Part shown: positions 10,878 to 27,064 of the stretch, piece by piece
Numbering within the stretch: the first letter of the stretch is position 1
How the letters are laid out: each line of letters opens with the position of its first letter
Assembly (NCBI GenBank): GCA_002315535.1
Contig: DCHA01000057.1
Coordinates: 676 to 64,675, forward strand
Origin: Firmicutes bacterium UBA1764
GTDB lineage: Bacteria; Bacillota; Clostridia; Peptostreptococcales; Anaerovoracaceae
Reading direction: 5' to 3'
DNA: 64,000 nt
Notes under the pieces: generated by a model
Told to the model about the DNA's origin: nothing
Seen by the model: only the letters and a program-made list of their open reading frames with translations
Database searches by the model: none
Position numbers and translations under genes: made by a program

Positions 10878-10889
10878 ACTAACGATTGA

Positions 10890-12854
10890 TTACGAAAAAA
10901 TACTTTTATCTAATCCCATCTCTTTAAGTCTTTTCCAAAGGGTGGTTCTGCTGATTTGGAGCTCTTCACAGCACACTTTGATATTGCCATGGTGCTTTAA
11001 ATATGCTTCCTTAACGGCATCTTCTGATGCCTTCTTTTTTATTTCTTTGTCAGTAAGATTTGATTTGCCTTTTTCATCGTAATTTACATTGTTGATGTTT
11101 AATTGTTCTTTAGATTTAAGCACAGGAAGGTTAGATAATTGATATCTGACTTCAGTTTCCGTAATAAAACCATTATCGGATAAAACCGCTATTCTTTCAA
11201 TAAAGGCTTTAAGCTGTCTTACATTTCCGGGCCAATTATATTCGGTAATACACTTAATTTGTGCTTTAGGGATAGGATAGTTGTATCCGAATTCTTTATA
11301 TTTTTCCTCAAGGAATCTACATGCTAGAAGGTAAACATCATTACCTCTATTTCGAAGCGGTGGAAGGAATAACGGAAGGACGTCAAGTCTATAGAAAAGG
11401 TCATCTCTGAAACTTCCATCCCTAACGCTTTCTATTAAGTCTCTGTTACTTGCGCAAATAATCCTATTGTTGATAGGGATGAGCTGAGTCCCTCCTAAAC
11501 GGCAAATTTGTTTTTCCTGAATAAATCTTAATAGCTTTGATTGGAGTGACATGGGCATGGTTGATATTTCATCCAAAAAAAGTGTCCCATTATGAGATAG
11601 CTCAATCAATCCGGCCTTTCCTTGCTTTTTTGCCCCGGTAAAAGCACCTTCCTCGTAACCGAACAGTTCGCTTTCAAGTAAGGTTTCCGGTAATGCTGCA
11701 CAGTTTATTGCGACAAAGGGTCCGTTTGCAAAAGGGCTTGCATTGTGAATGCTTTGCGCAAGAACTTCTTTTCCGGTACCGCTTTCGCCGGTGATGAGTA
11801 TAGTGCTGTTTGTGGATGCATATCGCTTGGATTGTCTGCGTAGTTCATTCATTCCGGAGTCCGAGGTAATAATATCCGCAAAGTAACTTGTTGCGGTAAA
11901 GTTTTGCTCTGCGATTTTTTTTCGTATCTGTTGCTCTTTCTTTTGCAGTTCAGAAATGTTAGTTATTGTTCGAACCTTCGCAATGATATCAGTTGAAAAG
12001 GATGGCAGGGAGTTGATGGCATATTTTTTCCCTTGGAATTCAATAATTTCATTATCATTGCAATTAATCATATGAGATAATACGGGCCATCTGTATTTTA
12101 TGTAGTTTGGGTAATGCCCGATTATAGCCTCTCTGTTTAATTTAAAAATATTTAACAAAATATCGTTGCATTCAACGACTCTGTCATTATCATCAATAGC
12201 AATAATACCATCTGAAAGCTTGTTAAAGCTCTCGGACAGAGCGGTTCTGTACGCAAGTCTTTTTCTGTATGTAATTCCCTCATCTATTGCCCTTTGGAAG
12301 GTGTCTTTAATATTGTCTTTTTGGAATGGAACAAATATTACATCTAGTCCATTGTTTTCGCAGGAATTTGAGACAGACGAAACAGATGTAATTACTCTGT
12401 TCAATCCTGCCTCTTTTACAACAACACTGTAATCTCTTTCGAAATCCATTTGCTCTGCATAGTAGGGTACAATTTCAACCCCTGATACTTGAGATAACAG
12501 GTTGACATCGTATATTTTAGGGCTTCCTTTGAACTGAATGAACATTATCGGAGATTTATTAGTTTTGCAGTTGTTATTTAGTGCAAGTGCAAAATCAAAA
12601 AGATCCAAATCCAAATCAACAACCGGAATATCGACAGATTGTCTTATAAAGGCTGCTGAGTTAAATCTTGCAATGAAAGCTGTAATATCAGGATTGTCAT
12701 GCAATATTTTAACTGCAATAGGTCCGGATTCTTTAAATTTTCCTTCAGACAATACCAATTCGATGTTCATTTCGTTAGCAACACTTTCAATGGTCTGTAT
12801 TAAGAGTTCTGATCGATTAGGTAAAAAGACGCATATTTTATTTTTTTCAACCAT
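10890..12854 (-). CDS. sigma-54-dependent transcriptional activator (bEBP) with non-receiver N-terminal sensor domain (PrpR-N-like by eye) and PAS-like segment
   Basis: 654 aa; Walker A GESGTGKE, sigma-54 contact loop EEGAFTGA, Walker [18 protein letters not shown]-terminal [17 protein letters not shown]. Confidence 0.9.
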
Positions 12855-12898
12855 AATAATGACCTCTTGTAATTATTTCTACAGTGTTGGTTGCTAAT

Positions 12899-12992
12899 AT
12901 GTTAAATATTATTAACATATTGACATCATTGTTTAACATTATGTTAATTTTGTCAAGTGTTAAATAGAGCTGTATTAGCACAATGTTAAATA
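12899..12992. promoter_or_regulatory. candidate enhancer (UAS) array for the sigma-54 activator
   Basis: ATGTTAA-N6-TTAACAT (12899-12918); TTAACAT-T-ATGTTAA (12933-12947); further TGTTAAATA copies at 12958-12966 and 12984-12992. Located about 65-160 nt upstream of the -24/-12 element. Confidence 0.55.
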
Positions 12993-13057
12993 ATAAACTA
13001 TCAACAATATCCTATCTGCAAGATTAGAAGGCATATTTAACAAGGGGAAAATAAAAA

Positions 13058-13073
13058 TGGCACAACTTTTGCA
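13058..13073 (+). promoter_or_regulatory. sigma-54 (-24/-12) promoter
   Basis: TGGCAC-AACTT-TTGCA, an exact match to the TGGCAC-N5-TTGCA consensus; 79 nt upstream of the 13152 start; divergent from a bEBP gene. Confidence 0.85.
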
Positions 13074-13151
13074 TTAAGAAACAGATAGTTAAATAATTAT
13101 CGCCCAAACCCGGGACGGGTGGTAATAGAAAAATTGTTTTAGGAGGAAAAC

Positions 13152-14363
13152 ATGGGAAACATTTTTGATGGCTTAAAAGTAATTGACATCACCAATAATC
13201 TCGCAGGTCCGCTTTGCGCACAACTGTTTGGAGATTATGGCGCTGAAGTTATTAAAGTTGAACGTCCAGGCGCTGGAGACGATTCCAGAGGACTTGCTCC
13301 AAAGATTGAGGGAGTATCACTCTTTCCACAGTGGTCAGCAAGAAACAAAAAATCAGTAACACTTGCGCTTGATGATCCAAGAGCACAAAAGATAATTCTT
13401 GAAATGGCAAAAGAGGCTGACGTATTTATTGAGTCCTATAAGCCGGGCATGATGAAGAAGTTCAACCTTGATTATGAAGCAGTATCAAAGGTAAACCCGG
13501 GAATTGTTTACGCATCTATTTCCGTAGCTGGACAGGTTGGCCCAAAGAGCAAGGTTCCTGGATTTGATATCATTGCTCAGGCAATGTCAGGATTCATGGA
13601 TAATACCGGTGAAAAGACCGGCAACCCGACAAAGTGCGGAACAGTAATAGGCGACTATGTTGGCGGACTTAATGCATTTGCCTCCATTTTGGCAGCACTG
13701 TTATACAAGCAAAAGACAGGCGAAGGACAGTATTGTGATGTATCACTTTTAGCTGGACTTGTTGGTGTTAATACACTTATCGACAGAGCTGCAACACTTG
13801 GAGATAATCCAACAAGAAGCGGTAACCACCACGGTTCTATGGCTCCTTATGGTCTGTACAATGGTAATAATGGCCAGAGCTGTATCATAGCAGCTTATAC
13901 AGGCAAGATGTGGCCAAATCTTTGCCAGGTAATCGGACAGCCGGAACTTGCAACAGATCCAAGATTCGACAGCAATGTAACACGTACAAAGAATATCGGA
14001 CAGCTTGTTGAAGTATTAGAGACATGGCTTAAGACATTCGATGATATCGATGAACCGGTTAAGCTTATGGCTGATGCAGGAATCGCAACATGCAAGGTTT
14101 ATACAACTCAGGATGTAGCAGACGATCCGGAATACAGAAACCTCGGTCTTATCGTAGATATGGATACTCCACCATCACTTCAGGGCAAGAGAGACAAGGT
14201 TACAACAAGAGGTTCTTGGTTCAAGTTCAGCAAGTGCCAGCCGGTTTATCACCGTGCACCAGACCTTGGTGAGCACAACGAAGAAATACTTCTCAAGTAT
14301 ATTTCCAAGGAAGAACTCGATCAGTGCTTAGCAGATTGGGCCGGAAAGTTTAAGAAGCAGTAA
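13152..14363 (+). CDS. family III CoA-transferase (CaiB/BaiF/Frc family), paralog 1
   Basis: 403 aa; GLKVIDITNNLAGPLCAQLFGDYGAEVIKVERPGAGDDSRG N-terminal signature; conserved Asp in GTVIGDYVGG; AGGAGG RBS. Confidence 0.85.
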   Translation: MGNIFDGLKVIDITNNLAGPLCAQLFGDYGAEVIKVERPGAGDDSRGLAPKIEGVSLFPQWSARNKKSVTLALDDPRAQKIILEMAKEADVFIESYKPGMMKKFNLDYEAVSKVNPGIVYASISVAGQVGPKSKVPGFDIIAQAMSGFMDNTGEKTGNPTKCGTVIGDYVGGLNAFASILAALLYKQKTGEGQYCDVSLLAGLVGVNTLIDRAATLGDNPTRSGNHHGSMAPYGLYNGNNGQSCIIAAYTGKMWPNLCQVIGQPELATDPRFDSNVTRTKNIGQLVEVLETWLKTFDDIDEPVKLMADAGIATCKVYTTQDVADDPEYRNLGLIVDMDTPPSLQGKRDKVTTRGSWFKFSKCQPVYHRAPDLGEHNEEILLKYISKEELDQCLADWAGKFKKQ

Positions 14364-14390
14364 AACGTATTATTATTCAGGAGGATGAAT

Positions 14391-15191
14391 ATGTACACTA
14401 GCCAATGTGAAAATATAGCATTTAGCGTAGATGAAAGAGGCATTGCAACTGTAGCACTCAATAGAGAGGAAGCTCTCAATGCACTTACCTGGGATATGGA
14501 ACAGGAGCTTGCAAATGTATTTAACTATTGCTCAACCGCTGAGGAAGTAAGAGTTGTTGTATTAACAGGTGCCGGAAAGCATTTCTGCGCAGGCGGAGAC
14601 ATCAAGGCATTTAAGAAGAGAATTGATGCCGGTGAGGCTCTCCCTCAAACAGGCGTTCGTTATGTAGGTGCCGCAGCAAAGGCTATCAGATTCTGCAACA
14701 AGCCGGTTATTGCAAAGATAAACGGAGCAGCAACAGGTGCCGGAAGTGCATTTACATTTGCCTGTGATTTCCGTGTAGGCGATGTAAAGACAAAGATTGG
14801 TGCAGGCTTTACAGGAATGGGATTCTCCGGAGACACAAACGGAGTTTACACCCTTTCAAAGCTTATTGGCCCAATGAGAGCAACAGAATTTTATATGCTT
14901 GCGCAGACGCTCACAGCAGAGGAAGCATTCCAGCTTGGAATCTTAAACAGACTCGCTGAAGAAGGAAAGCTTGATGAAGAAGTTGATAAGCTCGCAGCAA
15001 AGCTTGCAAACAGCCCAACAACTGCATTCACTTTCCAGAAGAAGATGATTAATCTTATCAACTACACAGACATGGATCTTCAGACAGAATTTGAGGCAAA
15101 CTTCATGCCTGCATGTTCAAAGACAGCAGACCATGCAGAAGCAGTTAATGCTTTCCTTGAAAAGAGAGCTCCAAAGTTTACAGGCAAATAG
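14391..15191 (+). CDS. crotonase-fold (enoyl-CoA hydratase/isomerase superfamily) protein, atypical active site
   Basis: LNREEALNAL...FCAGGDIK oxyanion-hole motifs. ATG at 14391 fits the AGGAGG RBS better than 14385. Both canonical hydratase Glu positions appear substituted (see findings). Confidence 0.75.
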   Translation: MYTSQCENIAFSVDERGIATVALNREEALNALTWDMEQELANVFNYCSTAEEVRVVVLTGAGKHFCAGGDIKAFKKRIDAGEALPQTGVRYVGAAAKAIRFCNKPVIAKINGAATGAGSAFTFACDFRVGDVKTKIGAGFTGMGFSGDTNGVYTLSKLIGPMRATEFYMLAQTLTAEEAFQLGILNRLAEEGKLDEEVDKLAAKLANSPTTAFTFQKKMINLINYTDMDLQTEFEANFMPACSKTADHAEAVNAFLEKRAPKFTGK

Positions 15192-15225
15192 CTATAGTTT
15201 TACTAATTTATTAAGGAGAAAAAAA

Positions 15226-16374
15226 ATGGATTATAACTTTACAGAGGATCAACTCGGTTTAAAAGAAATGACCAGAGACTTTGCGAATAAGGTTCTTATT
15301 CCGCAGGCAGCAGAAGCTGACAGAAAAGGCGAATTCATGGCTGATGCTTTTGCAGAAGCAGCAAAGATGGGTATTACATGCCTTGACCTCCCAGAAGAAT
15401 GGGGTGGAGCAGGCGTAGATCTTCTTACTACAGCTTTAGTAAGAGAAGAGCTTTCTCGTGGTGATGCAGGCTTTAGCTCAGCAGTTGGCGCATGCGGTCT
15501 TGGCTTTAAGCCAATAAACTTCGCAGGAACAGAAGCACAGAAAAAAGCATATGCAGATGTTGTAACAGGTGGCGGACTCCTTGCACTCGGACTTACAGAA
15601 CCGGAAGCTGGATCAGACGTTGCAAATAATAAGACTACTGCAGTTAAGAAGGGTGACAAGTACATTCTTAACGGAAGAAAGTGCTTCATTACAAACGCTC
15701 CAATTGCTGACATTATTACAGTATTTGCTATTACTGATAAGTCTGCCGGAGCAAAGGGCTTCTCAATGTTTATGGTTCCAAAGGGAACACCGGGACTCTC
15801 AACAGGAAAGCATGAAGACAAGATGGGTATCAGAACTTCTATGACATCTGATGTAATCATGGAGGACTGCGAAATTCCTGTAGAAAATATCATCGGTCAG
15901 GAAGGTGACGGATTCAAGATCGTAATGCAGACACTTGACAAGGGCCGTGTATGCTGTGGTGCAAGTGCTCTGGGAATTGCTCAGGCTGCATTTGAAAATG
16001 CAATGCGTTACTCTCAGGAAAGAATCCAGAAGGGTAAGCCAATTTGCAAGCATCAGATTATGCAGGCAAAGCTTGCTGATATGGGTATCAGACTTGAAGC
16101 AGCTCGTCAGCTCGTTTGGAGAGCATCTATGGCATTTGATGCAAATGCTAAGGATACTTCTAAGCTTGCTTCAATGTGCAAATGCTTCGCAGGAGATATG
16201 GCAGTATATGTAACATGTGAAGCTCTTCAGGTATTCGGTGGATATGGCTACAGCAGAGAATATCCAATGGAAAAGCTTTATCGTGATGCAAAGATTACTC
16301 AGATTTTCGAAGGAACAAACGAAATTCAGAGAACAATTATCGCCGGCAATTTAATTAAGGAATATCAGATTTAA
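15226..16374 (+). CDS. acyl-CoA dehydrogenase family flavoprotein
   Basis: MDYNFTEDQ... start with AAGGAG RBS (the ORF-track start at 15091 overlaps the upstream gene); GLTEPEAGSD, catalytic-base region IFEGTNEIQ. Confidence 0.85.
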   Translation: MDYNFTEDQLGLKEMTRDFANKVLIPQAAEADRKGEFMADAFAEAAKMGITCLDLPEEWGGAGVDLLTTALVREELSRGDAGFSSAVGACGLGFKPINFAGTEAQKKAYADVVTGGGLLALGLTEPEAGSDVANNKTTAVKKGDKYILNGRKCFITNAPIADIITVFAITDKSAGAKGFSMFMVPKGTPGLSTGKHEDKMGIRTSMTSDVIMEDCEIPVENIIGQEGDGFKIVMQTLDKGRVCCGASALGIAQAAFENAMRYSQERIQKGKPICKHQIMQAKLADMGIRLEAARQLVWRASMAFDANAKDTSKLASMCKCFAGDMAVYVTCEALQVFGGYGYSREYPMEKLYRDAKITQIFEGTNEIQRTIIAGNLIKEYQI

Positions 16375-16386
16375 TTGTTTGGTACG

Positions 16387-16410
16387 GGTGATGGGCGCAA
16401 GCCCATCACC
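16387..16410 (+). promoter_or_regulatory. intercistronic stem-loop (no T-run)
   Basis: GGTGATGGGC-GCAA-GCCCATCACC, perfect 10-bp stem with GNRA-type loop, between the ACAD and NMO-like genes. Confidence 0.5.
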
Positions 16411-16427
16411 TGAATAAAGGAGAAAAC

Positions 16428-17408
16428 ATGGGAAGTATAAAAACTCGAATGACTGAAATTCTCGGCATAGAATATCCGATTATGTGTGGCGGAATGCAGA
16501 ATGCTGCAAATCCGGAGCTTGCTGTTGCAATTTCAGAAGCAGGTGGTTTGGGAATAACAAATATCAGTATGTATCCTGATTTTGATGATTTCCGCAAAGC
16601 ACTAAAATGGATGCGTGCCCAGACTGATAAGCCTTTAGCAGTAAACATCTCAATGATCCCTAATGTAGATATGGGAGATAAAATAACAAAATATATCAAT
16701 ATCTGTGGAGAAGAAGGAATTAATGTAATTGAAACCTCCGGAAAAGATCCTGTAGATATTGTGCCGCTGATTCATTCATTTGGAATGAAAGTAATACACA
16801 AAGTACCAATGGCAAAGCATGCTCTTAAAGCACAAAAAAGCGGTGTTGATTTAGTAACCGTTGTTGGCTCTGAGGCTGCCGGTCATCCTTCCCCTGACCT
16901 CATTGGAACCTTTGTTGTTGCAAATAAAGCGGTTGAGCTTTGCGATATTCCAGTCCTCGTCGGAGGTGGTGTATGTAACGGCAGAAGCCTTGCATCTGCT
17001 CTGGCAATGGGAGCTGAGGGTGTAGTAATAGGAACAAGATTCCTTACTGCAAGTGAGTGCTCAATCTCCAATAATCACAAGCAATGGATTGTTGAACATA
17101 CGGAAAAGGACACCATTCTTTGCCAGAAAGCAATCAGAAATATGATTCGTACAGCTCATAATCAAGCTGCGGATGAATGTCTCGAAATGGAGAAAAAACC
17201 TGGTGTAACTCTTCAGGACCTTATGCCGATTATTGCCGGAGCAGTAGGCAAAGAAGCCTATGCTAGTGGCGATACAAGCAAGGGTATGTTTGCGGTTGGA
17301 CAAGACATCGGACTCATCGATGATGTAAAGCCGGCTGCTGAAATTATCAAGGAAATGGTTGAAGAGGCTTGTGCATCCATTGACAGATTATCAAATATAG
17401 TAAAGTAA
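16428..17408 (+). CDS. FMN-dependent NMO/FabK-like oxidoreductase (nitronate monooxygenase / enoyl reductase II family)
   Basis: 326 aa; YPIMCGGMQNAANPELAVAISEAGGLG and GSEAAGH motifs. Confidence 0.75.
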   Translation: MGSIKTRMTEILGIEYPIMCGGMQNAANPELAVAISEAGGLGITNISMYPDFDDFRKALKWMRAQTDKPLAVNISMIPNVDMGDKITKYINICGEEGINVIETSGKDPVDIVPLIHSFGMKVIHKVPMAKHALKAQKSGVDLVTVVGSEAAGHPSPDLIGTFVVANKAVELCDIPVLVGGGVCNGRSLASALAMGAEGVVIGTRFLTASECSISNNHKQWIVEHTEKDTILCQKAIRNMIRTAHNQAADECLEMEKKPGVTLQDLMPIIAGAVGKEAYASGDTSKGMFAVGQDIGLIDDVKPAAEIIKEMVEEACASIDRLSNIVK

Positions 17409-17420
17409 GGAGATGTAACT

Positions 17421-18620
17421 ATGAAGGATAAACTGAAATTATCAGTTCCATTGTTATGTGCACTTACATGGTTTGGACATTCTTGCGGAGCATCTCTGGC
17501 AACAGGTCGTTTAGCAGCTCAGTATTGCACAAGACACGGTGCATATGGATTTATTGCAGCCGTATTTATCTGGGTTGTAACATGTGGCTTTTGCTTTATT
17601 GTAATGGACTATGCGCGTTTAATTAAAGCAAATAGTTACCACGATTGTGTTGAGACGATATATTATCCAAATAAAATATTGGGTAAAGTATTAAATATCA
17701 TTTGGGATATTACGGTTTTAGTTTCAACAATTGTAACATCCGGAACCTGTATAGCAGGTTGTGGTTCACTGCTGCAGAAATTATTCGGTATTAATTATTA
17801 TGTCGGCATGGGTATTTTCCTGGTAATTATGCTTTTTGTATTCCTTATAGGACCTGGAATACTTGAGAGACTTGGAAAAATGTCATTGCCTATGCTCATT
17901 CTTCTTTTAGTATTATGCGTTGTAATGTTTACCAATAATATTGGAAATATGAACGCAAGCATCGCAGGAACATACAACGACATTCTTGATCCTAAGGCTG
18001 TAGGCATTGGATCCGCATTAAATGATGGATTAACTTACGGAATGACTCAGTCAGGATTTGTTGCAACAGGTATTGTTTATGCCGGAAGATATACAAAGAG
18101 AAAAGAAACAGTAAAATCCTGCTTCCTCGCATTTATCTTTGGCGCAGTAGCAATGGTACTGACAACCATGTCGGTATTTGCATATTTCCCGGATTCACAA
18201 GGGGAAACGCTTCCATTGCTTTATGCAATGCAGCAATACAACTCTACAGGCGCAACCATTTTATACGCAATCTATAACATTATTGTTTTGCTTGCATATA
18301 TATCTACTGCAGGCTCAATTATTACCGGTGCAACAGCAAGGTATAAGCTTATTGTCGGTAAGGTGGTAAAGAGCGAAAAGGCTTGCACGATTATCTTACT
18401 CGTATTCTTCCTTTGTGCTTCAGTTATCTTAGGAAGATTCGGTCTTACGGTTCTTGTAGATAAGGGATTCAAGCTTGTAGGAAAAGTTAGAACCTTTGTA
18501 TGGTTCTGGCCTCTGCTTGTTCTTGGTCCAATCGCTATTATGCGTGTATCAAAGAAAATCAAGGAAACCGGTAAAATTCCTTTCGGCCCACATGCCGGAG
18601 AGGATGCAAATATTAATTAA
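17421..18620 (+). CDS. polytopic membrane protein, YkvI-like putative transporter
   Basis: 399 aa, about 11 hydrophobic segments; the N-terminal GHSCGASLATGRLAAQY resembles the YkvI GAGFASGxE motif. Function unverified. Confidence 0.45.
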   Translation: MKDKLKLSVPLLCALTWFGHSCGASLATGRLAAQYCTRHGAYGFIAAVFIWVVTCGFCFIVMDYARLIKANSYHDCVETIYYPNKILGKVLNIIWDITVLVSTIVTSGTCIAGCGSLLQKLFGINYYVGMGIFLVIMLFVFLIGPGILERLGKMSLPMLILLLVLCVVMFTNNIGNMNASIAGTYNDILDPKAVGIGSALNDGLTYGMTQSGFVATGIVYAGRYTKRKETVKSCFLAFIFGAVAMVLTTMSVFAYFPDSQGETLPLLYAMQQYNSTGATILYAIYNIIVLLAYISTAGSIITGATARYKLIVGKVVKSEKACTIILLVFFLCASVILGRFGLTVLVDKGFKLVGKVRTFVWFWPLLVLGPIAIMRVSKKIKETGKIPFGPHAGEDANIN

Positions 18621-18640
18621 TTTTTTAAGGAGGAAATTTA

Positions 18641-19957: not shown

Positions 19958-19965
19958 ACCCTTCA

Positions 19966-19994
19966 AATGTGGCGTACATATAGTGCGCCACATT
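19966..19994 (+). terminator. terminator-like hairpin ending the sigma-54 operon
   Basis: AATGTGGCGTAC-ATATA-GTGCGCCACATT, 12-bp stem (one G-U); weak T tract. Confidence 0.55.
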
Positions 19995-20115
19995 CCACAC
20001 AATTATGGCAAGATTATATTCGTAATCTATATAACTCCTAAGAAGCGTGACGTATTAGTGTGAGAGCAAATACAAACGCAACGTCAATAATACTATTATT
20101 TATCTTGACGTATTA

Positions 20116-20149
20116 AACCTCTTCACTTTATCCGCGAAGAGGTTTTTTG
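20116..20149 (+). terminator. second, orphan rho-independent terminator
   Basis: AACCTCTTC-11 nt loop-GAAGAGGTT followed by TTTTTTG; no ORF between it and the previous terminator. Confidence 0.55.
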
Positions 20150-20199
20150 TTTCAAAGCTTATAATAAAATAGGAACAGGATGAGAAAAGAATAACAGGG

Positions 20200-21564
20200 A
20201 TGACTACATTACATATCATAGGTTTTGTATTATGTATATTGGCAATTATTACTCTTGGATATTTTTCAGGTAAAAAAGTATCAACTGGGTCTGATTATAT
20301 TTCGGGCAGTGGGAAGGGGGGCTTACTTCTTGTAACAGGGGTCCTTTTCAGTACAAATATCGGTGGCGCGTCTACTATAGGGGCAGCTCAAGGCGCTTTT
20401 ACTGGTGGACTTTACGGAATGTGGTGGAACGTTGGCGTTTTTCTTGCCAATTTTGTAATAGGTTTGTGCCTTGCAAAGCATATTAAGAGTAGCGGCTGTG
20501 TTACAATGCAGCAATTCATTCGTATTAAGTATGGATCAAAAGCTGCTCTAACATCTGCTGTGCTGTCAAGCATAGGTGTTTTAGTATCAATAGTGACTCA
20601 AATTCTTTCTGCCACAGCATTATTGATGTCTATCCTTAAAGTATCATTTGTTCTAGCAACAGCTATTGCTACGGTATTGATGATAATATATGTAATTTTT
20701 GGAGGAGCAATCGGGGCCGGTATGGTTGGCATAGCAAAGGCAGGACTTTTGTTTGTCTTTTGTATTGTAGGCGGAATAATAGTTATTAGAAATACCAGCA
20801 ATATTCCCGGAGGGTTTTCCAACCTTGATCCTAACGTGTATTTTAATTTAAACACAGGTGGAATTCTCAATAATATAGGAGGCGTAATAAGTTCAATTGT
20901 AGGGCTTGCAGTTTCTCAGGTTTTCTTTACATGCTTTTCAACAGCAAAGGATGTTAAAACTGGACAGCGTGCTTGTTATATAGCATCACTTCTAATTCTT
21001 CCGATTTCAATTGCCTCTGTGGCTATTGGAATGTATATGCAGCTTACCCATCCTGAAATAAGTTCTAAAGAAGCCTTCCCAAGCTTTTTGCTTATGAATT
21101 TAAATCCTTTTTTATCAGGTGTCGCTTTGGCAACATTATTAATAACTGTTGTTGGTTCCGGAGCAAGTGTAACCCTTGGTATCGCAACCGTTATTTCGAA
21201 GGATTTGTATGGGCATTTTAAACCCAATGCGAACGAAAAAGAAATGTTATATGCAACCAGGCTTGCAATAATTCTGGTGTTGATCGTTGCATTTATTTTT
21301 ACATGTCTTTGCGGGAATAGTTATATTTCTCTTTTTACTATGCTTTCAATGGCATTGAGAGCGGCGGTAAATTTTGTTCCAGTTATGTTGGCATTTTTCT
21401 CAAAGAAAATTATTGGGGAAAAGCATTGCCTATCGTCAATGTATTTTGGAATTGTATCCTATTTGGCAGTTTATTTTGTGAGCAAATCAACTATGTACGC
21501 ACTTTTAGCAAGCATTATTGTTGCACTTGTTCCTATTATGTTAAAAAATAAAAAACAATTATAA
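20200..21564 (+). CDS. sodium:solute symporter (SSS/SSF) family transporter
   Basis: 454 aa polytopic; N-terminal GKKVSTGSDY...GGLLLVTGVLFSTNIGGASTIGAAQGAF is SSF-like. Confidence 0.7.
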   Translation: MTTLHIIGFVLCILAIITLGYFSGKKVSTGSDYISGSGKGGLLLVTGVLFSTNIGGASTIGAAQGAFTGGLYGMWWNVGVFLANFVIGLCLAKHIKSSGCVTMQQFIRIKYGSKAALTSAVLSSIGVLVSIVTQILSATALLMSILKVSFVLATAIATVLMIIYVIFGGAIGAGMVGIAKAGLLFVFCIVGGIIVIRNTSNIPGGFSNLDPNVYFNLNTGGILNNIGGVISSIVGLAVSQVFFTCFSTAKDVKTGQRACYIASLLILPISIASVAIGMYMQLTHPEISSKEAFPSFLLMNLNPFLSGVALATLLITVVGSGASVTLGIATVISKDLYGHFKPNANEKEMLYATRLAIILVLIVAFIFTCLCGNSYISLFTMLSMALRAAVNFVPVMLAFFSKKIIGEKHCLSSMYFGIVSYLAVYFVSKSTMYALLASIIVALVPIMLKNKKQL

Positions 21565-21662
21565 AGTAACTTTTGGCAAATGCATAAAAGACTAATAGTA
21601 TGGTTAAAACCATTCAAATAGTGTCATTTTTTATATGACGAAAAAAAGAAAGGAGCTTAATT

Positions 21663-22856
21663 ATGGCAGATATGTTATCAGGAGTAAGAGTCATTGACTT
21701 CACAGCTAATGCAGCAGGTCCAACAGCAACCGCTATGCTCGCAGACTATGGCGCTGAAGTAGTCAAGATTGAAAAGCCTAATACTGGAAACGATCAGAGA
21801 GCATATGGAATTCAGGTCGATGGAGTATCGCTTCTTGGCGCTTGGCTTGATCGTGGCAAAAAATCAGTTACACTTGATTTGAAAGATCCTGAATCAATTG
21901 AGATTATTAAGAGAATGTTGCCTGATTTTGATATTCTTGCAGAATCTGGCCGTCCGGGAGTAATGGACAAGCTTGGTTTAGGATACGAGGAAGTTCATAA
22001 GATTAATCCGAAACTAGTCTATTGTTCTGTTTCAGCATTTGGACAAAATGGTCCTTATGCGAGAAAGCCGGGCTACGATTTGATAGCGCAGGCAATGTCT
22101 GGAATCATGGATATTTGCGGAGATCCTAATGGAGCTCCGGTAAAATCGGGAACAACACTTTCTGACTATGTAGGTGGCATTGCAGGCTTTGGTAGCATTG
22201 TTACAGCTCTAAGATACGCTGAAAAAACCGGCGTGGGTCAGCATGTAGATGTATCATTACTCATGTCGATGATTTATCTTAATGGTGCTGTTGAATACCT
22301 GAATGTTGGACAAAAGCTTTCCCGCACTGGAAACCATCACAGTACATTGGCTCCTTATGGACTCTTTGAAGGCAAAAATGGCCAGAGCATAGTTCTCGCT
22401 GTAATCAGTCCAAAGCTTTGGGGAATATTATGCCAGACAATCGACAAGCCAGAGCTTGAAAACGATCCGAAATTTAATACCCTTCAGCAGCGTAGAGCTA
22501 ACAAGGAAGAATTAATAAAGATTATAGAAGATTGGCTTAAGGGCTTTGATGATATTAAAGACGCAATTAAGATTCTTGACGGTGCAGGTCTGCCTTGTGC
22601 AAAGGTTTTCGACCAGGAAGACGTAATGAACGATGTACATGTACTGGATCAAAAGTATATGGTTGAGGTTCCTACACCTGACTCAGTTACTTCAAAAGAT
22701 ACATTTATGGCACGTAATTGTATTGCTGGATTCTCTGAAACTCCGGGCAGTATAAAGAAGGGGCCAGCACTTGGTCAGCATAATGTTGAGATCCTTACCA
22801 AGTACGGTTTAAGTGAAGCCGAGGTAGAGGCTTTAGAAGGAAAATGGAAAAAGTAA
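21663..22856 (+). CDS. family III CoA-transferase (CaiB/BaiF/Frc family), paralog 2
   Basis: 397 aa; GVRVIDFTANAAGPTATAMLADYGAEVVKIEKP signature; Asp in GTTLSDYVGG; collinear with the 13152-14363 product. Confidence 0.85.
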   Translation: MADMLSGVRVIDFTANAAGPTATAMLADYGAEVVKIEKPNTGNDQRAYGIQVDGVSLLGAWLDRGKKSVTLDLKDPESIEIIKRMLPDFDILAESGRPGVMDKLGLGYEEVHKINPKLVYCSVSAFGQNGPYARKPGYDLIAQAMSGIMDICGDPNGAPVKSGTTLSDYVGGIAGFGSIVTALRYAEKTGVGQHVDVSLLMSMIYLNGAVEYLNVGQKLSRTGNHHSTLAPYGLFEGKNGQSIVLAVISPKLWGILCQTIDKPELENDPKFNTLQQRRANKEELIKIIEDWLKGFDDIKDAIKILDGAGLPCAKVFDQEDVMNDVHVLDQKYMVEVPTPDSVTSKDTFMARNCIAGFSETPGSIKKGPALGQHNVEILTKYGLSEAEVEALEGKWKK

Positions 22857-23926
22857 TGAACGTATTTGATAAATGTACAATAGGTAATGTTACTCTGAAT
22901 AATCGCTTTGTTCGTTCTGCAACTGCAGGGCCCTTTTCTCCCGGCGGCAAGATTTCTGAGGCGGGGTTGAGAAGATATGCAGAGCTTGCTAAAAATCATG
23001 TAGGGCTTATCATAACCGAAATGGCCTATGTGTCAGAAGATGGTAAAGCATCACGCTCCTGCATGTCTATTACAAGCGACGCAGATGTTGAGCAACATAC
23101 CATGGTCGCAAAAACTATTCACGACAATGGCTCGAAAGTATTTTTGCAAATAAATCATGGGGGTGCGGCTGCATTAGTTGATAATCCCCCAAGTCCGTCA
23201 GGTCTCCCTTCTCCTTACACGAACGCTCCCACTATAGAGATAAGTGAAGAAGATATTATTCGTATTACAAGAGATTTCGCAGATGCTGCAGTTAGGGCTG
23301 TGAAGGCCGGTTACGATGGCGTTCAAGTGCAGTGTGCACATGGTTGGCTTATTAGTCAATTTATTGACCCTGCATTTAACAAACGTCAGGACAAGTATGG
23401 TGGAAACGCACAAGGCCGTTTTCTTTTTGCAGAGGAGATTATCAGAGCTATCAAAGAAGCAGTTGGAGAAGAATTTCCTGTGTGCATTAAGATTAACAGT
23501 AATCTTGCAGAAGGTGATGATGCATATGAAGCAGATCTTTTATATTTTGCAGAGAAGTGTGCAGAGCTAGGAGTGTGCTGCATAGAGCTTAGCGGTTGCG
23601 ATTTCACGCCTTTAGGAAGAAAGCAATTACATAATTATTATTTGGATAGAGCTTTAAAAATCAAAGCACAAGTTCAGATGCCAATTATGTTAATTGGTGG
23701 GATACGTACACAGGCAGATATAGAAGAGCTAATGGAAAAGGGAATAGACTTTGTATCGATGGCGAGACCCTTCCTTTGTCAGCCGGATATAGTGCTTCGT
23801 TTGGAGCAAGGCGAGGATTCTAAATGTGTAAGCTGCAGTAAATGCTTTATCATGTCTAGAAAGTTTAGCGAAGAAGGACGTTTATGTTTTAATCATGAAC
23901 CGATGTCTGACACATACAAGGACTAG
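22844..23926 (+). CDS. old-yellow-enzyme/2,4-dienoyl-CoA-reductase-like FMN TIM-barrel with C-terminal Cys cluster (no NAD(P)H/FAD domain)
   Basis: NNRFVRSAT..., QINHGG, AHGWLISQFIDPAFNKRQDKYGG, C-terminal CVSCSKC...C motif. The start could be 22856 (TAATG overlap) instead of 22844. Confidence 0.75.
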   Translation: MEKVMNVFDKCTIGNVTLNNRFVRSATAGPFSPGGKISEAGLRRYAELAKNHVGLIITEMAYVSEDGKASRSCMSITSDADVEQHTMVAKTIHDNGSKVFLQINHGGAAALVDNPPSPSGLPSPYTNAPTIEISEEDIIRITRDFADAAVRAVKAGYDGVQVQCAHGWLISQFIDPAFNKRQDKYGGNAQGRFLFAEEIIRAIKEAVGEEFPVCIKINSNLAEGDDAYEADLLYFAEKCAELGVCCIELSGCDFTPLGRKQLHNYYLDRALKIKAQVQMPIMLIGGIRTQADIEELMEKGIDFVSMARPFLCQPDIVLRLEQGEDSKCVSCSKCFIMSRKFSEEGRLCFNHEPMSDTYKD

Positions 23927-23955
23927 GGTATTTCATATACTTTGATTACCACATA

Positions 23956-23990
23956 AAAACCCCGGACCTTTCGGTCCGGGGTTTAGTTCT
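23956..23990. terminator. bidirectional rho-independent terminator
   Basis: AAAAA-CCCGGACC-TTTC-GGTCCGGG-GTTT between convergent genes. Confidence 0.85.
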
Positions 23991-24019
23991 TCTTTTATAT
24001 ATAATAGAGGGTTTTTGAA

Positions 24020-25159
24020 CTATCTAATCATAGATCCGCCAACTACCATCATCTGTACTTCGGATGTTCCTTCGTAGATTTCTGTAATCTTAGCATCTCT
24101 CATCATACGTTCGATTGGATATTCTCTTGTGTAGCCATAGCCACCGTAGAGCTGGAGGCAACGACGTGTTACATCACTAGCATTTCTTGCTGCGAAGAGC
24201 TTAGCTTCTGCTGCAAGGATGGAGTATGGTTCGCCATTGTCGAGAGCGTTAGCTGCTCTGTAAACGAGCATCTTAGCTGCGTCTGTGTTAGCCTTCATCT
24301 GAGCAAGTTCGAACTGTGTGTTCTGGAATGCTGCGATTGGCTTTCCAAACTGTACTCTCTGCTTTACGTATTCAACTGTTACGTCAAGAGCGCCTTCTGC
24401 AATACCGAGAGCCTGAGCAGCGATACCGATACGGCCGCCATCAAGTGTCTGCATTGCAAGAGCAAATCCCTTACCAAGCTTTCCAAGGAGGTTTTCCTTT
24501 GGAACCTTAACGTTTTCGAAAATGAGTTCGCATGTGTTAGATCCGCGAATACCCATCTTGTGTTCCTTCTTACCTACGGAGAATCCTTCCATTCCCTTTT
24601 CCATAATGAATGCGGAGATTCCCTTTGTTCCCTGTGACTTGTCTGTCATAGCCATTACGATGAAAATGTCAGCATATGCTGCATTTGTAATGAACATCTT
24701 GGAACCATTAACGAGGTAGTAGTCGCCCATATCTTCAGCAACTGTCTTCTGGCCAGCAGCGTCTGTACCAGCGTTAGCTTCTGTAAGACCGAAAGCACCA
24801 AGCTTCTTTCCTGCGAGGAGGTCAGGGAGGTATTTAGCCTTCTGCTCTTCTGTACCGAAGTGGAAGATTGGCCAGCAGCAAAGTGAAGCGTGTCCTGAAA
24901 GTGTAACGCCTGTGGAAGCGCACTTCTTGGAGATTTCTTCTACGCACTGTACGTATGAAAGTTCGTCCATACCCATTCCGCCGTATTCTTCAGGGAATGC
25001 AATACCCATGAGACCCATTTCAGCCATTGTTGGGATAAGTTCTTCTGGGAATCTTTCCTGTTCGTCGAGTTCTGCTGCGAGTGGAGCTACTGCCTTTTCA
25101 GCGAAATCCTTATAAACTGCTAATAACTCTTCATGCATTTCGTCATTTCTAAAATCCAT
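24020..25159 (-). CDS. acyl-CoA dehydrogenase (butyryl-CoA dehydrogenase-like, Etf-dependent)
   Basis: 379 aa; GLTEANAGTD, IYEGTSEVQ; AGGAGG RBS; directly downstream of etfB-etfA. Confidence 0.85.
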   Translation of the reverse strand: MDFRNDEMHEELLAVYKDFAEKAVAPLAAELDEQERFPEELIPTMAEMGLMGIAFPEEYGGMGMDELSYVQCVEEISKKCASTGVTLSGHASLCCWPIFHFGTEEQKAKYLPDLLAGKKLGAFGLTEANAGTDAAGQKTVAEDMGDYYLVNGSKMFITNAAYADIFIVMAMTDKSQGTKGISAFIMEKGMEGFSVGKKEHKMGIRGSNTCELIFENVKVPKENLLGKLGKGFALAMQTLDGGRIGIAAQALGIAEGALDVTVEYVKQRVQFGKPIAAFQNTQFELAQMKANTDAAKMLVYRAANALDNGEPYSILAAEAKLFAARNASDVTRRCLQLYGGYGYTREYPIERMMRDAKITEIYEGTSEVQMMVVGGSMIR

Positions 25160-25240
25160 AGTATCCTCCTAAATAATACTATTATCATGCCGGAGCCGTA
25201 CAAGTGAGTTTGTAAGGCTCCGGAAATTAACATCAGTTAA

Positions 25241-26245
25241 TTAAGCCTTAAGCTTCTTTACTTCTTCTGTGAGAAGTGGAACGATTTCCTTGAGGTCGCC
25301 TACGATACCGTATGTTGCAACTTCGAAGATTGGAGCGTCAGCGTCCTTGTTGATAGCAACAATAACGTCTGAACCAGCCATACCAGCTCTGTGCTGGATA
25401 GCTCCGGAGATTCCGCAAGCTACATAGAGCTTTGGAGCAACTGTCTTACCAGTCTGTCCAACCTGGTGTGCGTGTGAGATCCAGCCAGCATCTACTGCTG
25501 CTCTGGAGCAACCAAGTGTAGCACCGAGGAGATCGCAGAGTTCCTGAAGTGGAGCGAATCCTTCTGCGTTACCTACGCCACGTCCGCCGGAGACAATGAT
25601 GTCTGCGCCTTCGAGATCAACAACTTCTTCAGCACCTTCTTGGATCTTGCGAACGAGTTCTGTTCTGATGTCAGCTGCTGCAACATGGATATCTTCCTTG
25701 ATGATTTCAGCGTGTGGAGCTTCTTCTTCAGCCTTCTTGAATACGCCAGGACGTACTGTACCAATCTGTGGTCTAGCTGTCTTGCAAAGAATAGTAGCCA
25801 TGAGGTTACCACCGAATGCAGGACGTGTCCAAGCGATGCAGCCTGTTTCTTCGTCGATTCCGAGTGATGTGCAGTCAGCTGTAAGACCAGTCTGAAGTCT
25901 TGCACTTACACGTGGAGCGAAGTCTCTGCCGTTTACGGATGCGCCTACGAGCATAGCTGTTGGGCCATACTTTTCAACTGCAGCAACGAGAGCTGTAGCA
26001 TAAGCATCTGTTGAGAACATCTGATATTCAGGACCTTCAATAACGATAACCTGGTCAGCACCATGCTTTGCAGCGTCATCAACAGCAGCCTGAACATTAT
26101 TTCCGATAACTACTGCAACGAGCTTTCCGCCCTGCTTTGCAGCGAGTTCTTTTCCTGGGTTAAGAAGTTCGATACCAACGTTACGAGCGGAGCCGTCTTC
26201 CTTAGTTTCTACGAATACCCATAAATCTTTTGTCTTAGGATCCAT
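25241..26245 (-). CDS. etfA: electron transfer flavoprotein alpha subunit
   Basis: 334 aa; C-terminal FAD motif [16 protein letters not shown]; GGAGG RBS. Confidence 0.9.
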
Positions 26246-26260
26246 AATTACGCCTCCTCC

Positions 26261-27064
26261 TTAAATAACATGACTCTCGGTGAGCTTGCCAACGAGAAGT
26301 TTAACTACATCTTCAGGTGTTTCAGCCTTGAGGATTTCTCCGCCAGCAGCAACTGGTGGTGTGAATGACTTTCTTACGAATGTCGGGGATCCCTTAAGAC
26401 CGATCTTTGCATCGTCCATATCCGGATTGAATCCGTCGCCAAGAACTTCGATAACTGCCTTGTTTGCAGCCATCTTTCTCTTGATGGTCGGGAATCTTGG
26501 ATCGAAGCTTGGCTTTGTGAATGTTACAACTGCCGGAGCCTTAATTGAAAGTACGAGATTTCCATCAGCGCCTTCCTTGAGAACTTCAAGCTTGTCGCCG
26601 TTCATTTCGCATTCGAGACCATTTGTGATCTGGCCATATCCGAGCCATTCTGCCATTTCTGGACCAACCTGTGCTGTATCTCCATCGATAGCCTGCTTGC
26701 CGCAGAAGATGAAGTCGAACTTGCCTTCAACTTTTTCGATTTCCTTTACAGCGTTGTAAAGAATGTAGGATGTTGCGAGTGTGTCGGAGCCTGCGAATGA
26801 TCTGCCGCTAACGAGATAAGCCTTGTCAGCTGCGATTGCGAGGCATTCCTTGGAAACAGCCTTTGCTGCTTCTGGGCCCATTGTTACAACAACGATTTTA
26901 ACTTCTGGGTCTTTGTCCTTAAGACGTGCTGCTGCTTCCAGAGCATAACCATCATATGGGTTAAGGATTGCTGGAACGCCATCACGGATAAGGGTGTTGG
27001 TTACAGGATCGATCTTAATCTCGGTCGTATCCGGAACCTGCTTTGCGCATACTAAGATGTTCAT
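26261..27064 (-). CDS. etfB: electron transfer flavoprotein beta subunit
   Basis: 267 aa; MNILVCAKQVPDT... N-terminus; AGGAGGG RBS. Confidence 0.9.
   Translation of the reverse strand: MNILVCAKQVPDTTEIKIDPVTNTLIRDGVPAILNPYDGYALEAAARLKDKDPEVKIVVVTMGPEAAKAVSKECLAIAADKAYLVSGRSFAGSDTLATSYILYNAVKEIEKVEGKFDFIFCGKQAIDGDTAQVGPEMAEWLGYGQITNGLECEMNGDKLEVLKEGADGNLVLSIKAPAVVTFTKPSFDPRFPTIKRKMAANKAVIEVLGDGFNPDMDDAKIGLKGSPTFVRKSFTPPVAAGGEILKAETPEDVVKLLVGKLTESHVI

Follow-up and report, generated by a model that had tools for sequence, protein, structure and literature searches.

In both the carnitine (Cai) and the caffeate (Car) pathway, priming is the work of a ligase, and coenzyme A (CoA) is recycled from the product to the substrate by a transferase. 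Orphan acyl-CoA gene clusters are common in gut Clostridia, and the gut Oscillospiraceae (Intestinimonas and its kin) shape the short-chain acid pool; to our knowledge, most of the electron-sink pathways of these bacteria are still unknown. Here we analyse an island of acyl-CoA genes at positions 10890-27064 of a 64,000-nucleotide stretch of DNA from Firmicutes bacterium UBA1764, the whole of which is referred to below as the window. The genes of this island form a real, conserved unit under sigma-54 control. Our preferred reading, to which we give a probability of about one half, is that the island is an inducible operon for the CoA-dependent, multi-step reduction of an organic acid, probably as an electron sink.

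A fermentation that invites comparison is the 5-aminovalerate route of Clostridium viride, which proceeds by CoA transfer, elimination of water and delta-isomerisation, followed by a reductive branch (PMC13495136, PMC8473912). In a 2026 study its CoA-transferase, dehydratase and isomerase genes were still unassigned, AbfD-type dehydratases and 4-hydroxybutyrate-type CoA-transferases being proposed (PMC13495136).

A conserved unit under sigma-54 control

The island is organised as two convergent transcription units. About ten co-oriented genes on the forward strand (13152-23926) make up an operon with a strong terminator at its 3' side, and an etfB-etfA-acd unit on the reverse strand (27064-24020) runs towards it; between them lies a bidirectional intrinsic terminator with a 12-bp stem (23957-23984), which ends both. 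The genes listed in the original prediction, the convergent etfB-etfA-acd operon included, were all recovered where it had placed them, by open reading frame (ORF) calls and by matches to Pfam and NCBIfam, and the only other ORFs of at least 80 aa in 10890-27064 are shadow frames. Because there is no further ORF of this size, the components that are hallmarks of the described pathways are truly absent from the island, as had been claimed: it has no BCCT carrier, acyl-CoA ligase, 2-hydroxyacyl-CoA dehydratase or activator of such an enzyme, thiolase or 3-hydroxyacyl-CoA dehydrogenase. None of the 13 island proteins reaches the cut-off of a curated NCBIfam equivalog, the models covered including those for CaiA, CaiB and CaiD, AcrABC, the mesaconate, glutarate, oxalate and formyl-CoA transferases, BaiCD, bilirubin reductase, FabK, PaaG, GcdH and cyclohexanecarboxyl-CoA dehydrogenase.

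These genes travel together. The same order (activator, first CoA-transferase or CoAT1, crotonase-fold protein, first acyl-CoA dehydrogenase or ACAD1, a flavin protein of the nitronate monooxygenase (NMO) family, two membrane carriers, second CoA-transferase or CoAT2, and a short Fe-S protein of the old yellow enzyme (OYE) type) was found in at least eight independent contigs or genomes, three of them from named species or metagenome-assembled genomes (MAGs). The 9-10-gene core is present in L005, L009-L016 and L029; of these, L016 is the cultured strain Intestinimonas aquisgranensis CLA-AA-H199, L014 is Candidatus Intestinimonas stercoravium, L015 is an Oscillospiraceae MAG, L009/10, L011-13 and L029 are metagenome contigs, and L005/6 is a ruminant Oscillospiraceae MAG in which the gene order is permuted. 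More remote or rearranged versions occur at a distant Desulfitobacterium locus (L008), in Caproicibacter sp. BJN0012 (L017) and on the human-gut metagenome contigs L023/L024, and variants of the cluster are present in human, chicken and ruminant gut assemblies. Identities to the orthologues (tblastn) are 70-83% for CoAT1, the crotonase, ACAD1 and CoAT2, 81-84% for the NMO-family protein (39% in L005), 68-79% for the second membrane carrier (Mem2), 53-58% for the OYE-type protein and 43-53% for the first membrane carrier (Mem1). The G+C contents of the orthologous loci differ widely, and the cluster has thus not been spread by a single recent transfer. When metagenomes were scanned with a crotonase profile, the patterns proved too general, yielding 79 crotonases from soil and marine sources that are unrelated, and L029 as the one locus of use; a genome scan with strict Mem1 patterns returned three species genomes and permits no inference on absence elsewhere, for example in C. 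viride.

Two further variants help to define the core. The minimal one (L027/28; crotonase 58% identical) comprises a Mem2-like carrier, crotonase, ACAD1, NMO, an unrelated SSS-family symporter, CoAT2 and a PrpR_N activator, and has neither CoAT1, Mem1 nor the OYE-type protein. In the other (L023/24; crotonase 72% identical), NMO, an AMP-forming acyl-CoA ligase in the slot of CoAT1, crotonase, ACAD1, Mem2, Mem1 and CoAT2 are accompanied by two more NMO paralogues. Comparison of these variants with L029 leaves CoAT2, a PaaG-like crotonase, ACAD1, NMO and the GntP-like carrier Mem2 as the set common to all. The OYE-type protein, the SSS symporter and Mem1 are frequent additions, Mem1 being present in every variant but the minimal L027. 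Genes for the electron-transferring flavoprotein (Etf) stand beside the cluster in five arrangements (window, L005, L014, L018 and L023), and EtfA-FixC, with a small unassigned ORF in the position of FixX, in L008. Of the two extra ene-reductases and three importers to which the original prediction drew attention, the NMO and the GntP-like carrier are found in every variant examined, but the OYE-type protein, the SSS symporter and the etf-acd unit come and go.

The L023/L024 locus (2090-18955) is also the relative most often indexed, in 127 blocks of the collection. It has three NMO paralogues in all, adjoining EtfBA genes, an MFS carrier and a BluB/nitroreductase-like protein, and the sigma-54 activator is replaced by a LytTR two-component system.

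That the genes are chance neighbours with no common pathway is scarcely credible. The etfBA-acd unit, the SSS gene and the OYE gene are not in every locus, but the shared order extends to genomes whose G+C contents are very different and to two named species of Intestinimonas, the activator and the sigma-54 promoter are kept with it, and a single terminator closes the unit.

As had been predicted, the gene for a sigma-54 enhancer-binding activator (bacterial enhancer-binding protein, bEBP; 654 aa, 10890-12854, reverse strand) diverges from a consensus -24/-12 promoter. The activator has a PrpR_N sensor, a central PAS-like region, the AAA+ domain that interacts with sigma-54 (PF00158, E 9e-67), a lid and a Fis-type helix-turn-helix (HTH) domain, the Pfam matches being PrpR_N, Sigma54_activat, AAA_lid_14 and HTH_8; its top NCBIfam matches, PrdR and PrpR, are both far under cut-off. 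Orthologues with 37-39% identity adjoin the cluster in L009, L012, L014, L016, L027 and L029. The promoter, TGGCACAACTTTTGC (13058-13072, forward strand), was found by motif scan and is the sole exact TGGCAC-N5-TTGC in the 64-kb window; it lies 80 nt 5' of the first ATG, in a divergent spacer of 297 bp. With up to two mismatches the motif occurs 56 times in the window against 58.6 expected, which is the level of chance, so that only this exact and correctly placed site counts. The loci L009, L012/13, L014 and L016, the distant L008 of Desulfitobacterium and the minimal L027 all have TGGCA[CT]-N5-TTGC 5' of their first enzyme gene, and this site is kept in all orthologous loci that carry the activator. 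From 65 to 160 bp upstream of the -24/-12 element (12896-12994), a repeat search found TGTTAAA/TTTAACA repeats, and among them a perfect palindrome with 10-bp arms, AATATGTTAA-N6-TTAACATATT (12896-12921); these are probable activator-binding sites. The published reconstruction of sigma-54 regulons for Clostridiales includes no such operon. The idea of a dedicated, substrate-induced pathway thus stands as regards a dedicated unit, given the conserved order and promoter; its electron-sink function and class of substrate we can only infer.

Several observations concern the regulatory region itself. The leader that follows the sigma-54 promoter is 166-167 nt long in the Intestinimonas-type loci (L012, 4308-4719; L016, 5176-5593; L014, 5234-5656), compared with 80 nt in the window, and the leaders of L012 and L016 share a conserved hairpin, CACTTGGA(A/T)TTGGCCAACCAAGT, that has no Rfam match; neither the window leader nor the longer one of L016 contains anything above the Rfam gathering threshold. 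On the other side of the activator gene, a 134-aa ORF (10439-10843, forward strand) encodes two domains of a sigma-54 activator, the AAA+ lid and the Fis-type HTH, and no others. Its identity to the C-terminal end of the neighbouring intact activator is 40%, and the 220 bp upstream of it are full of in-frame stops; it appears to be a relic of another, paralogous bEBP, which perhaps once served the adjoining permease and amidohydrolase genes.

The crotonase-fold protein

Is the crotonase-fold protein (14385-15191, forward strand; ECH_1 Pfam match) a hydratase, as an analogy with the Cai system would have it? Hydratases of this fold are recognised by one Glu in the motif GGG-x-E-L and a second in P-E-x-x-L-G. 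In an alignment with Escherichia coli PaaF, PaaG and CaiD, both residues are kept in PaaF and CaiD, and both are replaced in the window protein, by Ala and Phe (GAGSAFTFACD and IGAGFTGMG, compared with GAGCELALLCD and FGLPEITLG in PaaF). The Asp of its GFSGDTNG motif aligns instead with the Asp of PaaG GLIPDCGG, which we take to be the catalytic residue D136. This pattern, with no Glu pair and with the PaaG Asp, is kept in all orthologues and even in distant relatives of 35% identity. The protein is 31% identical to E. coli PaaG and scores 182 bits with the PaaG model, for which the cut-off is 345; it is best read, from these residues, as a double-bond isomerase of the PaaG/FabM type that is PaaG-like in its active site and is no PaaG orthologue. 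The CaiD-like hydratase role that had been suggested for it must be abandoned, and the Cai analogy of CoA-transferase, hydratase and ACAD fails because the defining Glu residues of a hydratase are missing.

Could the island be an oxidative entry module? ACAD1 would then desaturate a saturated or branched acyl-CoA, the isomerase and flavoproteins would adjust the double bonds, and a housekeeping hydratase, dehydrogenase and thiolase, with genes at other sites, would finish a catabolism resembling beta-oxidation that supplies carbon and energy. Relatives of the island enzymes are found in such company: in L025 the NMO-crotonase pair lies within a full beta-oxidation set (thiolase, 3-hydroxyacyl-CoA dehydrogenase, hydratase and family I CoA-transferase), in L007 and L019 a FadB-like protein, a thiolase and an ACAD stand beside a related CoA-transferase, and L005 has an extra crotonase that is, by its residues, a normal hydratase. 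Except for this canonical hydratase of L005, however, the 9-10-gene core has no hydratase, dehydrogenase or thiolase in the orthologous loci examined. Moreover, the Etf found with it is by similarity one of the bifurcating, reductive kind, reductive branches are where a CoA-transferase loop is typically met, and beta-oxidation without an external acceptor would bring little gain to strict fermenters. We consider an oxidative role quite unlikely.

The two CoA-transferases

CoAT1 (403 aa, 13152-14363, forward strand; PF02515, E 2e-103) and CoAT2 (397 aa, 21663-22856, forward strand; PF02515, E 6e-110) are 43% identical to each other. The PF02515 fold spans the full length of both, and in an alignment the Asp equivalent to D169 of CaiB is kept in both and in their orthologues. 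Their closest solved structures are SUGCT (9br6) and YfdE (4hl6), which are of the dicarboxylate type, CaiB being far more distant; the highest-scoring NCBIfam models are those of mesaconate and glutarate transferases, and all these scores fall well short of the cut-offs. Both are thus family III enzymes, as predicted, but the equivalence implied by speaking of two CaiB-type transferases is not borne out. CoAT2 occurs in every variant and is the sole CoA-transferase kept in L023 (61% identity) and L027 (66%), whereas CoAT1 is dispensable, its slot being taken by the AMP-forming ligase in L023/24 and CoAT1 being absent in L027. We propose that CoAT2 is the core transferase of a CoA loop, passing CoA from the product thioester to the substrate, and that CoAT1 is a priming or activating transferase, because the exchange of CoAT1 for a ligase mirrors the pairing of CaiC with CaiB and of CarB with CarA.

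Two class III CoA-transferases and an ACAD are also the core of the Bbu system, in which BbuB and BbuC work only together (PMC8364193). A Cai- or Bbu-type pathway for a primary or quaternary omega-amino acid (crotonobetaine, gamma-butyrobetaine, delta-valerobetaine, gamma-aminobutyrate or 5-aminovalerate) would have the two transferases form a hetero-oligomer like BbuB/C, with ACAD1 eliminating the amine as BbuA does and the isomerase tidying up the enoyl-CoA; the fold of Mem1, which is that of amino-acid, choline and agmatine carriers, would suit such substrates. An obligate heteromer is, however, hard to reconcile with the loss of CoAT1, or its replacement by a ligase, in sister variants. 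The island has no BCCT carrier, BbuD ferredoxin or thioesterase, its crotonase cannot be a CaiD-type hydratase, and its identities to CaiB and CaiA are only 26-29% and 30-32%, with the NCBIfam Cai models far under cut-off. This makes a Cai- or Bbu-type pathway very improbable.

Flavoproteins and carriers

ACAD1 (382 aa, 15226-16374, forward strand) has all three ACAD Pfam domains. Its start is the ATG at 15226, which is used in the gene calls of identical contigs; the TTG at 15091 given by the ORF tool makes the protein too long. ACAD2 (379 aa, 24020-25159, reverse strand) is recognised by Pfam and resembles Bcd and AcrC. The two are 45% identical and both are closest to butyryl-CoA dehydrogenases, the nearest structures to ACAD1 being Bcd of Acidaminococcus fermentans (4l1f) and of Clostridioides difficile (5ol2); the catalytic Glu lies in FEGTNEIQ in ACAD1 and in YEGTSEVQ in ACAD2. 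With the AcrC model they score 409 and 501 against a cut-off of 640, and no ACAD equivalog cut-off (AcrC, Bcd-type, GcdH, cyclohexanecarboxyl-CoA dehydrogenase or CaiA) is reached. ACAD1 has clade-specific motifs (GDAGFS, a Gly-rich helix and KHQ) that are not interpretable without a ligand-bound structure. In L014, a 65%-identical copy of ACAD2 and an EtfA gene lie directly upstream of the cluster.

ACAD2 is encoded with the large and small Etf subunits, EtfA (25241-26245) and EtfB (26261-27064), both on the reverse strand and both recognised by Pfam. Among structures in the PDB, EtfA scores 330 bits with CarE, 310 with the A. fermentans Etf and 299 with that of C. difficile, compared with 176 for human ETF; for EtfB the values are 229 (4kpu_B), 213 (CarD) and 191 (5ol2_B), compared with 89 for human ETF. 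By this similarity, the window EtfBA would be of the bifurcating type.

Two further flavoproteins are encoded in the operon. The NMO-family FMN protein (326 aa, 16428-17408, forward strand; PF03060, E 3e-48) has PA1024 (219 bits) and FabK (186 bits) as its PDB matches and scores 211 bits with the FabK model, against a cut-off of 453. PA1024 of Pseudomonas aeruginosa is an FMN-dependent NADH:quinone oxidoreductase that is strictly NADH-specific (PMC10033279). We propose that the NMO protein is an NADH-dependent reductase of activated C=C bonds; its gene is in every variant of the cluster, and stands beside a PaaG-like crotonase even in L025. The OYE-type FMN protein (360 aa, 22844-23926, forward strand; PF00724, E 1e-60) has four C-terminal Cys residues. 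Its PDB matches are YqjM and, over residues 6-340, FadH, to which it is 28% identical. The Cys of its CxxCxxC...C motif align with those of CxxCxxxC...C in FadH and are conserved in six orthologues, those of L008, L011, L014, L015 and L016 included, the gene being absent from L005 and L009. The protein ends at residue 360, where the FAD/NADPH half of FadH begins, full-length enzymes of this type having about 640-670 aa. It is probably equivalent to the N-terminal half of a FadH/enoate-reductase-type enzyme, with a [4Fe-4S] cluster. Its score with the BaiCD model is 159, against a cut-off of 825.

The carriers are of three kinds. Mem1 (399 aa, 17421-18620, forward strand) had been described as YkvI-like, a label that we do not retain: neither Mem1 nor 10 remote relatives match any Pfam or NCBIfam model, although 10 of 16 Mem1 relatives match Trp_Tyr_perm weakly. 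In its AlphaFold2 model (pLDDT 80.8) Foldseek recognises AdiC, BasC, CHT1 and AgcS at probability 1.0, and a profile search of 1.84 billion proteins gave 33 representative clusters at E<=1e-30. Judged by the model, then, Mem1 is a secondary carrier of the general LeuT/APC fold, from a small family that has no Pfam or NCBIfam model. For Mem2 (438 aa, 18641-19957, forward strand) the label GntP permease needs qualification. The window protein has no Pfam match at E<=0.001, but two of its orthologues (68-74% identity) match PF02447, one cleanly and one weakly; Mem2 is present in all variants of the subfamily, including the minimal L027, and is probably a carboxylate importer. The third carrier, an SSS-family symporter (454 aa, 20200-21564, forward strand; PF00474), has a 45%-identical counterpart in the corresponding slot of L029 and an unrelated one in that of L027, and is absent in L005, L009, L011, L014, L015 and L016. 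The G+C content across its gene (20001-22000) is 0.37, compared with 0.40-0.44 in adjoining 2-kb bins, and a 242-bp gap precedes it; both are consistent with a later insertion into the operon.

Proposed pathway and candidate substrates

How might these parts work together? In the reductive pathway that we favour, the acid would enter by the GntP-like carrier, with Mem1, the SSS symporter or both helping to import it or to export the product. CoAT1 would prime the loop from a common acyl-CoA, as the AMP-forming ligase would do in the sister variant and as CaiC and CarB do in theirs. ACAD1, with its FAD, would make or reduce a 2,3 double bond to give a 2-enoyl- or 2,4-dienoyl-CoA. The FabK/PA1024-like NMO could then reduce a conjugated C=C bond with NADH to give a 3-enoyl-CoA, a reaction that the OYE/[4Fe-4S] protein, where present, may also carry out with electrons from an external low-potential donor. 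The PaaG/FabM-type crotonase would shift the 3-enoyl-CoA to a 2-enoyl-CoA, and the last enoyl-CoA would be reduced to a saturated acyl-CoA by an ACAD with the bifurcating-type EtfBA, whether this is the ACAD of the convergent unit or ACAD1 with the same Etf. Finally, CoAT2 would move CoA from the end-product thioester to fresh substrate, releasing the product acid in an energy-saving loop like those of CaiB, FldA and CarA.

We favour a reductive direction because hydratase, dehydrogenase and thiolase are all missing from the core and because Etf genes of bifurcating type lie nearby; together with EtfA-FixC at the Desulfitobacterium locus, these are also the reasons why an electron-sink role fits. 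A route through dienoyl- and 3-enoyl-CoA is suggested by the persistent pairing of an isomerase-type crotonase with a FabK-family NADH-FMN reductase, often with a FadH-like module in addition. Isomerase and reductase are the two auxiliary functions by which 3-enoyl-CoA and conjugated dienoyl-CoA are dealt with when unsaturated acids are metabolised, and the presence of the NMO-crotonase pair within the beta-oxidation set of L025 agrees with this. Our leading guess for the substrate is a C5-C7 acid that is processed by way of a 2,4-dienoyl-CoA, such as 5-hydroxy- or 5-aminovalerate (to valerate), a sorbate-like dienoate or a hydroaromatic acid.

Several points weigh against this reading. The direction, reduction rather than oxidation, is one that we infer from gene content alone, and ACAD1 has no recognisable specificity signature in the alignment. 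The NMO protein might act as an NADH:acceptor diaphorase and not as an ene-reductase, as PA1024 reduces quinones. The OYE and Etf genes are missing from the otherwise complete loci L009 and L027, so that the dienoyl step and the link to Etf may be dispensable, or may be provided by genes in other places. A scan of ORFs in the 6.1-53.3 kb part of the window (those of at least 200 aa in 30.6-53.3 kb) revealed no rpoN. Lastly, the kinship of both CoA-transferases with SUGCT and YfdE points to di- or tricarboxylates, not to C5-C7 monocarboxylates, as do the CitMHS and DASS carriers that accompany distant relatives of the cluster (CoA-transferase 53-55% and crotonase about 35% identical).

These last features raise the question of whether the same enzyme logic acts on an unsaturated di- or tricarboxylate such as itaconate or mesaconate, glutaconate, aconitate, or muconate and 3-hexenedioate. 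The substrate would be activated as by SUGCT, the isomerase would move a beta,gamma double bond into conjugation (itaconyl-CoA to mesaconyl-C4-CoA, or 3,4- to 2,3-dehydroadipyl-CoA), and ACAD/Etf or NMO would reduce it to the saturated dicarboxylate. The PrpR_N sensor class of the activator, which in PrpR responds to a tricarboxylate, would suit such a substrate, and 3,4-dehydroadipyl-CoA is a substrate of PaaG. In aerobes a CoA-transferase and an ACAD act on methylsuccinate (PMC12290011). The CitMHS or DASS carriers occur in the related clusters of Caproicibacter, Desulfitobacterium and L018, however, and these have only about 35% crotonase and 50% ACAD identity and may use another substrate; in the subfamily to which the island belongs (crotonase at least 58% identical) such carriers are never found, their place being taken always by a GntP-like carrier with an APC-fold or SSS carrier. 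In addition, the mesaconate and glutarate matches of the transferases are far under cut-off, and no CoA-transferase equivalog is approached. A di- or tricarboxylate is, in our view, an unlikely substrate.

Within the reductive reading, the best candidate for a specific assignment is the fermentation of 5-aminovalerate and 5-hydroxyvalerate to valerate, for which the island would be the missing CoA-dependent gene set of a classical gut fermentation, that of C. viride. Here CoAT2 or CoAT1 would be the 5-hydroxyvalerate CoA-transferase, ACAD1 the green FAD-containing 5-hydroxyvaleryl-CoA dehydrogenase/dehydratase, NMO or the OYE-type Fe-S protein the 2,4-pentadienoyl-CoA reductase, the crotonase the 3-pentenoyl-CoA isomerase, and ACAD2 with EtfBA a bifurcating 2-pentenoyl-CoA reductase. 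As an identification this is tentative and, in our view, unlikely. The eight-electron reduction of shikimate or quinate to cyclohexanecarboxylate is a comparable alternative. The gut flora carry out this conversion, and we know of no genes assigned to it. The conversion calls for CoA activation, an isomerase and the reduction of four C=C bonds, and its acids would be well served by a carrier of the gluconate type; we also assume a likeness of the cluster to the Ans/Chc genes of Streptomyces. No dehydratase is evident in the cluster.

If any of these assignments is true, be it 5-aminovalerate or 5-hydroxyvalerate, a hydroaromatic plant acid or an itaconate-type acid, the cluster would serve as a genetic marker of valerate formation, of the hydrogenation of plant acids or of the removal of an immune metabolite, respectively. 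Its presence in the cultured I. aquisgranensis CLA-AA-H199 makes it directly testable. The split FadH-like reductase, a FabK/PA1024-like enzyme acting with CoA esters, and an APC-fold carrier family without a Pfam or NCBIfam model are of biochemical interest in their own right.

Surroundings of the island

Directly upstream of the island (6130-10215) lie a class I/II aminotransferase gene on the reverse strand and genes for a Trp/Tyr-type permease and a 528-aa Amidohydro_3 protein. These are present in contigs of the same species and absent from all orthologous loci, and probably form a separate unit. In L007 and L019 a related CoA-transferase gene also stands beside an Amidohydro_3 gene. A part for Amidohydro_3 and the Trp/Tyr permease in the pathway was considered and rejected, the window Amidohydro_3 being only 22% identical to those of L007 and L019 and the gene being absent from the orthologous loci.

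Downstream, a tRNA gene (28531-28603, forward strand; Rfam, 66.9 bits) lies between cation-efflux and MATE efflux genes, and the region 30586-53297 is given over to the metabolism and transport of sugars, with no relation to the island; it encodes two ABC sugar systems, BtpA, a DeoR regulator, an FGGY kinase, an SDR, a HAD phosphatase, a GlcNAc 2-epimerase, a ROK protein, an amidohydrolase and RmuC. In Caproicibacter (L017, 222-4480) a second gene set beside the related cluster, encoding AtuA-like and AtuA_ferredoxin proteins, a family III CoA-transferase, a CitMHS/Na_H_antiporter carrier and a LacI regulator, represents another uncharacterised carboxylate module.

Relationship to described systems

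The original view that the island corresponds to no described pathway holds by sequence, by gene context and in the literature, the Cai, Car, Bbu and Bai systems having been tested or compared. We found no paper that assigns the cluster, in searches on its composition, on 5-aminovalerate, valerate and Intestinimonas, C. viride, itaconate and methylsuccinate, shikimate and cyclohexanecarboxylate, quinate and Lawsonibacter, PA1024, bbu, and sigma-54 in Clostridiales. The Bai operon is rejected as a counterpart, the island having no SDR, BaiE or BaiB and its OYE-type protein being short.

With the Cai system of E. coli (caiTABCDE and fixABCX) the island shares a CoA loop based on a family III transferase, an enoyl-CoA reductase of the ACAD type, a crotonase fold and an Etf-like electron supply, and CaiC primes the loop as the ligase would in the L023 variant. 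In contrast with Cai, the island has no BCCT antiporter, CaiE, ligase or FixCX, its Etf is by similarity of the bifurcating type, it adds NMO and the OYE/Fe-S protein, it is under sigma-54 control, and its crotonase is without the two Glu residues of CaiD. To the low identities with CaiB and CaiA given above (BLASTP with the E. coli proteins) may be added 31% with CaiD; with the CaiB model, for which the cut-off is 413, the scores are 122 and 144 bits, and with the CaiA model, for which it is 540, they are 212 and 189.

The Car system of Acetobacterium woodii and the Fld system of Clostridium sporogenes (FldA with AcdA-EtfBA) likewise use a CoA loop and an ACAD, bound to a bifurcating Etf, that reduces an enoyl-CoA, and CarD and CarE are among the best matches of the window EtfB and EtfA (213 and 330 bits). 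ACAD1, however, scores 288 bits with CarC (6fah_C) compared with 364 for a plain Bcd, and the window EtfA has no counterpart of the N-terminal ferredoxin domain of CarE, its alignment starting at CarE residue 69. Unlike the Car and Fld systems, the island has no 2-hydroxyacyl-CoA dehydratase, and has an isomerase-type crotonase and two extra types of FMN reductase that they lack. The bbuABCDEF cluster of Emergencia timonensis (PMC8364193) also combines two class III CoA-transferases with an ACAD-like flavoenzyme; it is a substrate-induced cluster of gut Clostridia, and its product feeds enoyl-CoA reduction. The island differs in having no BCCT carrier, ferredoxin or thioesterase and in the replacement of CoAT1 by a ligase, and its transferases are 43% identical compared with 30% for BbuB and BbuC; apart from these figures, the comparison is one of gene content.

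The pairing of a reductase with an isomerase has its own precedents, in FadH and PaaG of unsaturated-acid beta-oxidation and phenylacetate degradation and in FabK and FabM of streptococcal fatty-acid synthesis. The island crotonase has the active-site pattern of PaaG, the OYE-type protein resembles the FMN/[4Fe-4S] half of FadH, and NMO is a relative of FabK. Here too there are differences: the crotonase is only 31% identical to PaaG and the OYE-type protein only 28% identical to FadH, of which the island lacks the NADPH/FAD half, and the proposed substrates are CoA esters of an imported acid, whereas those of the known enzymes are acyl carrier protein esters or ring-cleavage products. In the case of C. 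viride the likeness is one of logic only. CoA transfer, a 2,4-pentadienoyl-CoA intermediate, isomerisation of 3- to 2-pentenoyl-CoA and reduction to valeryl-CoA all fit the gene content; C. viride presumably uses an FAD enzyme of ACAD size on 5-hydroxyvaleryl-CoA, and we take the host lineage (Oscillospiraceae) to be close. The cluster differs in having no aminotransferase or 5-hydroxyvalerate dehydrogenase.

Among systems that reduce enoyl-CoA esters within a CoA loop, of which it is probably one, the cluster is set apart by its isomerase-type crotonase, its FabK/PA1024-like FMN enzyme, its split FadH-like module and its APC-fold carrier of no Pfam or NCBIfam family.

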